DNA from: a virus
Taxonomy: Duplodnaviria > Heunggongvirae > Uroviricota > Caudoviricetes
DNA length: 13,719 bases
Virus record (IMG/VR): IMGVR_UViG_2850761752_000002
Reading direction: 5' to 3' (one strand)
The position numbers were made by a program. Below, piece by piece: positions 1 through 3,000 of the stretch. How positions within the stretch are numbered: position 1 is the stretch's first letter; every line of letters begins with the position of its first letter.

Positions 1-3000
1 TTAAACCCATTCCTGACCTCGAGTATCGTTATAGCGATCGGTGGTTGCCTGGACTTTATGTCCTAGTAATGTTTTTGTATCGATACCCTGTGCACGGTAC
101 AGCCGTTCTGATAGAGAGCGTTGTTCATGAAATGTTGGCGGAGTTTTTCCTGCTGGTGGAATTATCCCAGCCAGATCCCGTGCTTTGGCAAAGTAGTCGC
201 TCAGGTTGTCTTTACTCATCGGCTTCGGTTGTTTCTGGTGCCGACTATGGATTAGATATGGACTTAATATTCTGTCTCGGCACCCATCAATAACTTCTTT
301 TAACGTTATCCCAATGGCATCACAGCGTAGTGTAAGCGGTAACGCCAGACGCATTCCGGTTTTTCCCTGGGTGATATGCAAGTGTTCGTTCCACACATCT
401 GAAAAACGCATGTGGCAAATGTCATCACGGCGCTGACCAGTAACAATCGCAAGAAGCATTGCGTTACGGATAAAGTGTTTTTCAGGCGTTGCATTGTAAA
501 TTTTTTGCCAGTCTTCCATGGTGAGCCTGGCTCTGGTTACTTTAGGGATCGGTTTACGGGTAGCCTCCGGAGGATTCCATCCAGGAGGAACTTCCCCTGC
601 ATGCTGTGCTTCTTTATAAATATCAACCCATAATCCACGATTTACTCTCGCTGTGCTGACCATGTCTTTATCCAGCCACTCATCCAGTATTAATGCAAAG
701 TCTCTTACTTCCAGTTCTTTCAATGGGTGGTTTCCCAGACGGGAAACCAGGTATGCAGCCATTCGAGTTTTTTCTTTGTGAGTTGTAGCTGCAATATCTC
801 CATTTTTCAGTCGCGTGTCCTGTATTTTCAGATATCGATCAACCCATGCCTTTAATCTGATACCCCGACGTTTTGTTGCTGACGGACTTTCATCAATTTT
901 GCGCATGAAATATTCAGCTTCTGCTGCAGCTATTCGCTGATTGGCTGTGGAAGCGATTTTTTCTGCCTTACCTTTGTCTGTTCCGAGTCCGTGAAATTTT
1001 CCAGTCACAGGATTTTTATACTGGTAGTAAACTCTGCCAGTTCTGCGATCAAACTTTTCGTAAAGACCGGCTACGTCAGTGCTGTTTTTTCGTGGCCTCG
1101 GTGACATGAGTTAAAATCTCCTTCAGTGCATCATCATCGCCAGTATGAATTTCCGGCGCAATTCCCGTTTCACCTGGCCCAACAAATACTGCTCGGCGAT
1201 CTATCAGCCAACGCCCACGAATTTTTTGTGGTCTTGGAACGATGTATCCTAGTTTTCCGTATTTCACCAGGGTAGTGTTTGTTATTGGGAGACTGAACCG
1301 TTTTGGTTTCCACTCGTCGAGCGGGTAATGCTGCCAACTTACTGATTTAGTGTATGATGGTGATTTTAAGGTGCTTGCGTGGCTTCCATTTCCATCAGAT
1401 GTCCTTCCTGCTCCGCTACTGAAGGCGTGGTGCGTAACGGCAAAAGCACTGCCGGACATCAGCGCTATCTCTGCTCTCATTGCCGTAAAACATGGCAACT
1501 ACAGTTCACTTACACCGCCTCTCAGCCCGGTACGCACCAGAAAATCATTGATATGGCCATGAATGGCGTCGGATGTCGCGCCAGTGCACGCATTATGGGC
1601 GTTGGCCTCAACACGGTTTTACGTCACTTAAAAAACTCAGGCCGCAGTCGGTAACCTCGCGCATATAACCGGGCAGTGATGTGATTGTCTGCGCTGAAAT
1701 GGACGAACAGTGGGGCTACGTCGGTGCTAAATCACGTCAGCGCTGGCTGTTTTACGCGTATGACAGGATACGGAGGACGGTTGTGGCGCACGTCTTCGGT
1801 GAACGCACTCTGGCCACACTGGAGCGTCTTCTGAGCCTGCTGTCGGCCTTTGAGGTCGTGGTATGGATGACGGATGGCTGGCCGCTGTATGAATCACGCC
1901 TGAAGGGAAAGCTGCACGTTATCAGCAAGCGTTACACTCAGCGCATTGAGCGACATAATCTGAATCTGAGACAACATCTGGCAAGGCTGGGACGGAAGTC
2001 ACTGTCGTTCTCAAAATCGGTGGAGCTGCATGACAAGGTCATCGGGCATTATCTGAACATAAAACACTATCAGTAAGTTGGAGTCATTACCCGCCGACTG
2101 CCTGGAATTTATCTGGTCGTTACCCGAAAATTCTGTTGACCTGATAGTCACGGACCCGCCGTACTTTAAAGTGAAGCCTGAGGGCTGGGATAACCAGTGG
2201 AAGGGCGACGATGATTACCTGAAGTGGCTGGAGCAGTGTCTGGCGCAGTTCTGGCGGGTGCTGAAACCTGCCGGAAGTCTTTACCTGTTCTGTGGTCATC
2301 GCCTGGCATCTGATATCGAAATCATGATGCGTGAACGCTTCAGTGTGCTGAACCATATTATCTGAGCGAAGCCGTCCGGACGCTGGAACGGATGCAACAA
2401 GGAAAGCCTGCGGGCGTATTTCCCCGCCACAGAGCGCATTCTGTTCGCGGAACATTATCAGGGGCCGTACCGCCCGAAAGATGATGGCTATGAGGCGAAG
2501 GGCAGTGCACTGAAACAGCATGTGATGGCCCCGCTGATTTCTTACTTTCGTGATGCGCGAGCTGCCCTGGGGATAACGGCAAAACAGATTGCAGATGCCA
2601 CAGGAAAGAAAAACATGGTGTCGCACTGGTTCAGTGCCAGTCAGTGGCAGTTGCCGAATGAAAGCGATTATCTGAAATTACAGGCGCTGTTTGCCCGGGT
2701 GGCAGAAGAGAAGCATCGGCGTGGTGAACTGGAAAAGCTCCACCACCAGCTGGTGGATACGTATACCTCACTGAACCGGCAGTATGCGGAGCTGCTGAGT
2801 GAATATAAACATCTGCGGCGGTATTTTGGCGTGACGGTGCAGGTGCCGTATACCGATGTGTGGACGCATAAACCGGTGCAGTTCTATCCCGGGAAACATC
2901 CGTGCGAAAAACCGGCAGAAATGCTGCAGCAGATAATCAGCGCTAGCAGTCGTCCGGGTGACCTGATTGCAGATTTTTTCATGGGGTCGGGTTCGACAGT

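Follow-up and report, generated by a model that had tools for sequence, protein, structure and literature searches.

Deletions that start at the end of an IS1 element, known from classical work on the gal region of Escherichia coli as IS1-promoted adjacent deletions, arise by intramolecular replicative transposition of that element. Defective lambdoid prophages riddled with insertion sequences (IS) are equally familiar, as in the cryptic prophages of E. coli K-12 and the pool of defective prophages in O157. In the IS-rich genomes of Shigella, IS-driven prophage decay is well established (PMC8072062), and IS elements without a target-site duplication at deletion joints are a textbook signature (PMC11708052). 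Here we describe a locus of this kind, contained in a stretch of 13,719 nucleotides (nt) from the virus record IMGVR_UViG_2850761752_000002, which as a whole is called the window below, and in which a copy of IS1 stands between the integrase and excisionase genes (int and xis) of a lambdoid prophage and a DNA methyltransferase pseudogene at the edge of the late region. The window is 100% identical to the chromosome of Shigella boydii ATCC 8700 (CP026731.1, locus L005), where it forms the left two-thirds of a prophage remnant between potC and potB.

The remnant resembles the defective lambdoid prophages of Shigella and E. coli in having lambda-type int and xis genes at one end, both attachment (att) cores, a late fragment with lysis genes, moron-like cargo (transfer RNAs (tRNAs), a small RNA (sRNA) and an esterase), elements of several IS families, and large modules missing. 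It differs from them in that the whole early region and the Q gene have gone in a single step marked by IS1. A second deletion, at which an IS66 element stands, has removed the head and tail genes. Compared with the classical IS1-promoted adjacent deletions, the joint shares the presence of IS1, the lack of a 9-bp duplication, a deleted segment that starts at the IS1 end, and flanks that are collinear in undeleted relatives. The event described here is different, however, in being ancient and fixed in a natural lineage, without an ancestor or a nested series of deletions, and it is therefore not distinguishable from recombination between two IS1 copies. On the sequence comparisons given below, it is close to certain that the arrangement represents a deletion with IS1 at the joint, and not an insertion.

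The IS1 copy (1324–2091, plus strand) is 768 bp long, as is typical of its family, and has the other characteristics of IS1 elements, i.e. imperfect terminal inverted repeats (26 nt here, about 23 bp in the family; the pair being 88% complementary), the gene insA (1379–1654; Pfam Zn_ribbon_InsA and HTH_Tnp_IS1, E 5e-30) followed in the -1 frame by insB' (1681–2076; Pfam DDE_Tnp_IS1, E 1e-74), and the A6C slippery motif for frameshifting (1630–1636, IS1 nt 307). It lacks a target-site duplication. The 9-mer on its left, CGTCGAGCG (1315–1323), is native xis sequence, and the one on its right, CGCCGACTG (2092–2100), is native methyltransferase sequence covering codons 14–17, in agreement with the first-pass annotation of this stretch, which had claimed that the two differ. 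They are alike at six of nine positions, a level that random pairs from both regions reach about 1% of the time, and this likeness may reflect IS1 target preference or chance. A simple insertion would be recognized by identical 9-bp direct repeats and by flanks that are contiguous in relatives, and neither is found at this element. Its surroundings are those of an IS-associated deletion, with the IS at the joint and with flanks that lie apart, collinear and in the same orientation, in undeleted relatives.

Both breakpoints could be placed to the base by alignment with an intact relative, the prophage of E. coli 203740. On the left, the xis fragment (1076–1323, minus strand; phrog_629, E 1.7e-23) matches its profile from position 7 onward, and the intact xis gene of 89 amino acids (aa) extends 22 nt further, with the sequence TTATCAGGTACTGTTCGCTCAT (MSEQYLI plus one base). 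The fragment has lost its ATG and the next six codons, seven in all, and one base of codon 8. The breakpoint is thus 22 nt inside xis, and not at the start codon where IS1 had first been placed. On the right, the joint lies inside the methyltransferase gene (2092–3109, plus strand; Pfam N6_N4_Mtase on both halves), which is without its first 41 nt and in addition carries an in-frame TGA at 2363–2365 where relatives have TGG. Both lesions are present in all Shigella loci that were compared (12 of 12). The methyltransferase had been named correctly as the next gene, but its truncation and stop codon had been missed. The remainder of the initial description, that int and xis are joined through IS1 to a methyltransferase, tRNAs and late genes on the opposite strand and that no early gene occurs anywhere in the window, was confirmed by gene calls, Pfam and PHROGs.

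The reference for both flanks is the intact lambdoid prophage of E. coli 203740 (locus L001; NZ_CP025913.1, approximately 3,192,790–3,237,120), also located at potC/potB. In base-level alignments the left flank ends at position 21320 of this locus and the right flank begins at position 35722, so that a distance of 14,401 bp separates the two, which are collinear and share one orientation. The gene order in the reference is int, xis, exonuclease, dicB, cI-like, cro-like, ydaT, replication genes, hokD, DUF968, rusA, Q, an open reading frame (ORF) of 65 aa, and DNA methyltransferase, followed by tRNA-Ile, two tRNA-Arg, lysis genes, terminase, and head and tail genes. The first-pass annotation had placed the methyltransferase downstream of Q, and the order of Q, methyltransferase, tRNAs and lysis genes was verified in three annotated prophages that are intact. 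A tR'-like terminator just after Q falls within the deleted interval, and it was the only signal in a scan of the intact Q-to-methyltransferase interval, in which no consensus promoter was detected; judging from the lambdoid gene order, the late promoter was presumably lost too.

The remnant and the reference share their chromosomal site and a 14-nt att core, and their int–xis segments are 99.9% identical. They also agree in the order of the genes around the right breakpoint, where Q and the 65-aa ORF (on the side of the reference), the methyltransferase, tRNA-Ile and two tRNA-Arg follow each other. A tail-fibre-assembly fragment on the attR side of the remnant is 98% identical to the corresponding gene of the reference. 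The reference differs in its size of 44.3 kb between the att cores, compared to 15.4 kb in the remnant, about 5–6 kb of which is IS DNA, and in that its early, lysis and morphogenesis modules are complete. The lysis modules of the reference and the window are unrelated, and the methyltransferase/tRNA segments are only 95% identical. More generally, the left flank (4–1323) is 99.9% identical to the int–xis segment of the lambdoid potC prophage in more than 1,200 complete E. coli genomes, and the right flank is 95–97% identical to the E. coli relatives that were found. The best match to the right flank, a prophage of E. coli O121 (L002), was rejected as a two-flank reference, since it is located at ompW and has a different integrase. 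A search with the whole window among complete E. coli genomes identified none with the same arrangement, which exact-protein look-ups then located in Shigella.

The chromosomal surroundings of the remnant are undisturbed. Both ends carry the 14-nt att core CACCTTCTTATTCA, at positions -170 and +15222 relative to the window, the first being the att site to the left of int that the first-pass annotation had proposed to look for. The distance from int to the start of potC, on the left of the window, is 180 nt. To the right, the order is the 5' part of an IS66 element, a 31-aa tail-fibre-assembly fragment, the att core, potB, potA, a second IS1, pepT, roxA, phoQ and phoP. Synteny with E. coli is conserved on both sides (potD-potC on the one, potB-potA-pepT-roxA-phoQ-phoP on the other). 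The presence of both att cores, the synteny on both sides and the collinearity of the flanks indicate that the deletion happened in place. Genes for immunity, replication or antitermination (cI/cro, O/P-like, Q) were found neither in the window nor elsewhere between potC and potB. Two findings that would have spoken for a different history, flanks that are contiguous in related phages or early genes that lie beyond the window, were thus both sought and not encountered.

Identical 60-nt junction sequences were found in eight of eight assemblies that span IS1, including S. boydii ATCC 8700 (CP026731.1; PMC9430107), S. boydii 602068 (CP049285; PMC7545283) and S. flexneri serotype 6 strain 703427 (CP162080; PMC11708030). 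Their agreement indicates that the joint is real and arose once, in the ancestry of this lineage. The locus of S. boydii Sb227 (CP000036, L013) shares the left junction and the methyltransferase lesions with them, and its IS1 is identical. Two examples of short-read contigs carrying the integrase gene stop 4–5 nt short of the IS1 edge. On these comparisons of sequence, the locus represents a deletion with exactly defined endpoints that occurred in place and as a single ancestral event, and the two junction sequences provide a clean marker for the S. boydii / S. flexneri 6 lineage.

The integrase gene adjoining xis (1–1107, minus strand) encodes a lambda-type tyrosine integrase of 368 aa with the Pfam domains Arm-DNA-bind_1 and Phage_integrase. 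It is four codons shorter than its E. coli orthologue of 372 aa, as a result of a 1-nt insertion beside the stop codon (window 1–12), the 3' end of the gene being GGGTTTAA in the window and GGGTTAAG in E. coli. The exact 368-aa integrase is recorded in 607 blocks of the assembly collection, and is a marker of the lineage. In one locus (L012, GCA_026022415.1) the truncated xis has an extra in-frame deletion of 12 nt, equivalent to window positions 1278–1289. The first 29 nt of that locus, which do not align, were considered as a further extension of the deletion, and this was rejected because they reflect only the 12-nt deletion within xis.

The IS1 copy at the joint has itself changed since the joint was formed. 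In ATCC 8700 and most other strains, a CAA codon in the insB' frame just past the frameshift site has become a TAA nonsense codon (1666–1668), and the copy in this strain is now defective and unable to make its own transposase. The CAA codon is intact in the junction IS1 of S. flexneri 6 (L004) and of a further locus (L010), from which it follows that the element was intact and active ancestrally, when the joint was formed, and was inactivated later.

Two other IS1 copies serve as controls for the absence of a duplication. One of them belongs to the same genome and is located between pepT and potA at a distance of 15 kb (17320–18087 in composite coordinates, approximately 4240–5010 of locus L014). 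It is identical to the junction IS1 except for 1 nt, at the insB' TAA site, and is flanked on both sides by TTAGCTTTA, a perfect 9-bp duplication that is present as one copy in uninterrupted E. coli sequence. The second control is found in E. coli TW10598, whose copy of this xis gene was hit independently by an IS1 of like orientation, at a distance of 144 nt from the Shigella site. This IS1 has a 9-bp duplication (CACCAGGCC), and the early region of the prophage is intact. As both control copies carry perfect 9-bp repeats, simple IS1 insertions do leave a duplication in this context. The pepT-potA copy is inverted relative to the junction IS1, and recombination between these two could flip the entire remnant along with potAB, but the loci that were examined showed no inversion of this kind.

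With respect to the mechanism, the explanation that we put first, with about even confidence, is an adjacent deletion brought about by one IS1 copy through intramolecular replicative transposition. IS1 would first have been inserted in the prophage, the target being xis or the first codons of the methyltransferase gene of the late region. One of its ends would then have attacked another site in the same molecule, at a distance of about 14 kb. The element would have been kept at the joint and the intervening DNA lost, i.e. the xis start, exo, dicB, cI, cro, the replication genes, hokD, rusA and Q, as well as the tR'-like terminator after Q, presumably the late promoter, and the start of the methyltransferase gene. 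This route would leave IS1 between native 9-mers that are unrelated to each other, with no duplication of the target, and a missing duplication is usually ascribed either to adjacent deletion or to IS–IS recombination (PMC11708052).

Several observations weigh against an adjacent deletion by a single element. Synthetic junction queries representing a simple IS1 insertion in xis or in the methyltransferase gene were run against 5,426 complete E. coli genomes, and a simple insertion of IS1 was found at neither breakpoint. The sole near match was the independent insertion in xis of TW10598 mentioned above, and the eight Shigella assemblies examined all carry the final joint already. The right flank is no more than 95–97% identical to any E. 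coli relative, and the reference gives neither the true ancestral prophage nor the exact length of the deleted segment. Furthermore, an adjacent deletion and recombination between two directly repeated IS1 copies yield identical products, and IS1 is very abundant and enriched in Shigella (PMC8072062), which makes two insertions in a 44-kb prophage plausible.

Such a two-copy route is quite possible, if a little short of an even chance. It supposes that IS1 was inserted twice in the same orientation, at CGTCGAGCG in xis and at CGCCGACTG in the methyltransferase gene, and that RecA-dependent homologous recombination then removed 14.4 kb together with one of the IS1 copies. The product it predicts is the one observed, with one IS1 and with two different native 9-mers as its outer flanks. 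The enrichment of IS1 in Shigella (PMC8072062) fits this route, as do the independent IS1 hit in xis of the same prophage in TW10598 and the further IS1 copy 15 kb away in the same genome, and IS–IS recombination is a recognized cause of missing duplications (PMC11708052). On the other hand, neither of the two single insertions that it requires was found among the 5,426 complete E. coli genomes, and it needs one step more. For the latter reason an adjacent deletion by one IS1 appears to be slightly favoured, and only slightly. Of the earlier proposal of an IS1-mediated deletion, the deletion itself therefore stands, with flanks 14,401 bp apart, whereas the part played by IS1 is not separable from recombination between two copies.

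A chimeric origin, in which IS1 copies of two prophages or of distant sites recombined and fused int–xis of one prophage to the late region of another, is very unlikely. The uneven identity of the flanks (99.9% on the left, only 95–97% on the right) and the best right-flank match being an ompW prophage of E. coli O121 with a different integrase would be in line with such an origin. However, lambdoid prophages are mosaics in which the identity normally varies from one stretch to the next, and gene order and orientation match those of an intact prophage at the same site. A single exchange between IS1 copies at distant sites would moreover have broken synteny, and is ruled out by the synteny on both sides, where both att cores are also in place. 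Even less probable is that IS1 entered the double-strand break of an unrelated deletion, without a staggered cut of the target by transposase. This has been proposed for IS5 and IS481 events without duplications, and the joint described here has no duplication either, but it was shown for other IS families, and adjacent deletion sufficed for 14 of the 14 IS150-associated deletions in populations of the long-term evolution experiment (PMC11708052); nothing at the present joint calls for it. Finally, a simple IS1 insertion whose duplication has decayed, to which the six matching positions of the 9-mers might point, or an assembly artefact at a repeat, can be dismissed as having a negligible chance, because each 9-mer is native to a different gene, these genes are 14.4 kb apart in intact relatives, and eight independent assemblies, among them several closed chromosomes, have identical junctions.

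The head and tail genes have been lost separately. An IS66-family transposase fragment (11053–12327, minus strand; Pfam) is part of an element that has been interrupted by an IS629-type copy (plus strand, from 12452 past the end of the window; identified by its inverted repeat), the IS66/IS629 segment covering window positions 10938–13719 and about 1.2 kb beyond (7300–11275 of locus L014). The split IS66 element lies directly between a DUF3950 gene and the 31-aa tail-fibre-assembly fragment next to potB, at the position where the terminase genes would be expected to start. Neither the window nor the right context up to potB contains any terminase, head or tail genes, except for the 31-aa fragment. 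The IS66 element marks the second large deletion, by which these genes were lost. A prophage of E. coli fS25a with an ISEc23-type IS66 element (L020) was considered as an intermediate of this second deletion and rejected, as its IS is located between the terminase and capsid genes and thus at a different site from that in S. boydii.

Immediately downstream of the methyltransferase pseudogene lie three tRNA genes that appear to form a self-contained unit (3112–3431, plus strand; ARAGORN, Rfam and consensus scans). They encode tRNA-Ile2 with anticodon CAT (3150–3225), tRNA-Arg TCG (3233–3309) and tRNA-Arg TCT (3323–3399), all on the plus strand and all detected by both ARAGORN and Rfam, with scores of 58–72 bits against the Rfam tRNA model. 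Consensus scans of the same strand located a promoter-like site 10 nt upstream of them (3112–3140) and a terminator-like hairpin just downstream (3414–3431), and from these consensus matches the tRNAs probably form an autonomous unit that does not depend on Q. The tRNA with the CAT anticodon is called Met by ARAGORN, and RefSeq names its orthologues tRNA-Ile, of the lysidine-modified Ile2 type. The latter call fits the ileZ-argN-argO cluster of lambdoid phages. Downstream of the tRNAs, a complete Rfam match to the STnc100 sRNA (3476–3666, plus strand) scores 139 bits against a gathering score of 47; at this spot just after the tRNA cluster, Shiga toxin (Stx) phages carry their toxin genes.

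Farther to the right, a protein of 359 aa with DUF1737 and SASA esterase domains (3889–4968, plus strand; Pfam) is shortened in comparison with the approximately 617 aa of intact relatives; it belongs to the late-region fragment that has survived. In the interval 4969–5306 (plus strand), gene calls of related loci give an HTH_Tnp_1 product (orfA of the IS3 family) that begins there and extends into the neighbouring IS629 copy, and part of one more IS may therefore lie between the esterase gene and IS629. The IS629 copy itself, likewise within the late-region fragment, is an IS629/IS1203-type element of the IS3 family (5307–6616, minus strand), recognized by terminal inverted repeats, the Pfam domains rve and HTH_Tnp_1, and an ALIL frameshift pseudoknot. 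The lysis cassette (7659–9686, plus strand) consists of genes for a holin (7659–7874), a DUF1327 protein (7879–8223), an endolysin (8274–8807) and an Rz-like spanin (9288–9686), with PHROGs matches for the holin, endolysin and spanin. It is flanked by the two IS629/IS1203-type copies (5307–6616 on the minus strand and 12452–13719 on the plus strand), which are inverted relative to each other and differ by one mismatch in 1,268 nt. The first of these has the opposite orientation and slightly different edges in S. flexneri 6 (L004) and in locus L007, and this flip indicates that the region has been rearranged within the lineage.

As a prophage the remnant would no longer be functional. Although int and both att cores are kept, xis is incomplete, the early genes and Q are absent, and terminase, head and tail are missing. 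On its gene content the remnant would be unable to excise, to replicate or to switch on late transcription. That the late genes are left without Q and its promoter had been noted in the first-pass annotation and is a sound inference, though the late region itself is only a fragment. What expression survives, that of the three tRNAs and perhaps of the STnc100 sRNA, would have to use its own promoter or read-through from IS elements.

It may be asked whether the remnant is more than junk, in the sense that the IS1 deletion locked it in place, that the surviving genes are useful to the host, and that selection fixed the module in the ancestor of S. boydii and S. flexneri 6. We consider this unlikely. 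The tRNAs and the STnc100 sRNA score as intact and the joint is common to the clade, the strains of which are too much alike to show selection. If it were true, the cargo that was kept would be a rare-codon tRNA unit (Ile2-CAT, Arg-TCG and Arg-TCT) with promoter- and terminator-like sites of its own, and STnc100.

The deletion is real, but it is of an ordinary and already known kind of IS-driven prophage decay. The analysis provides base-level endpoints for one IS1-marked deletion, the value of which lies mostly in annotation, and the locus adds one more worked example of how IS expansion has dismantled the prophages of Shigella.

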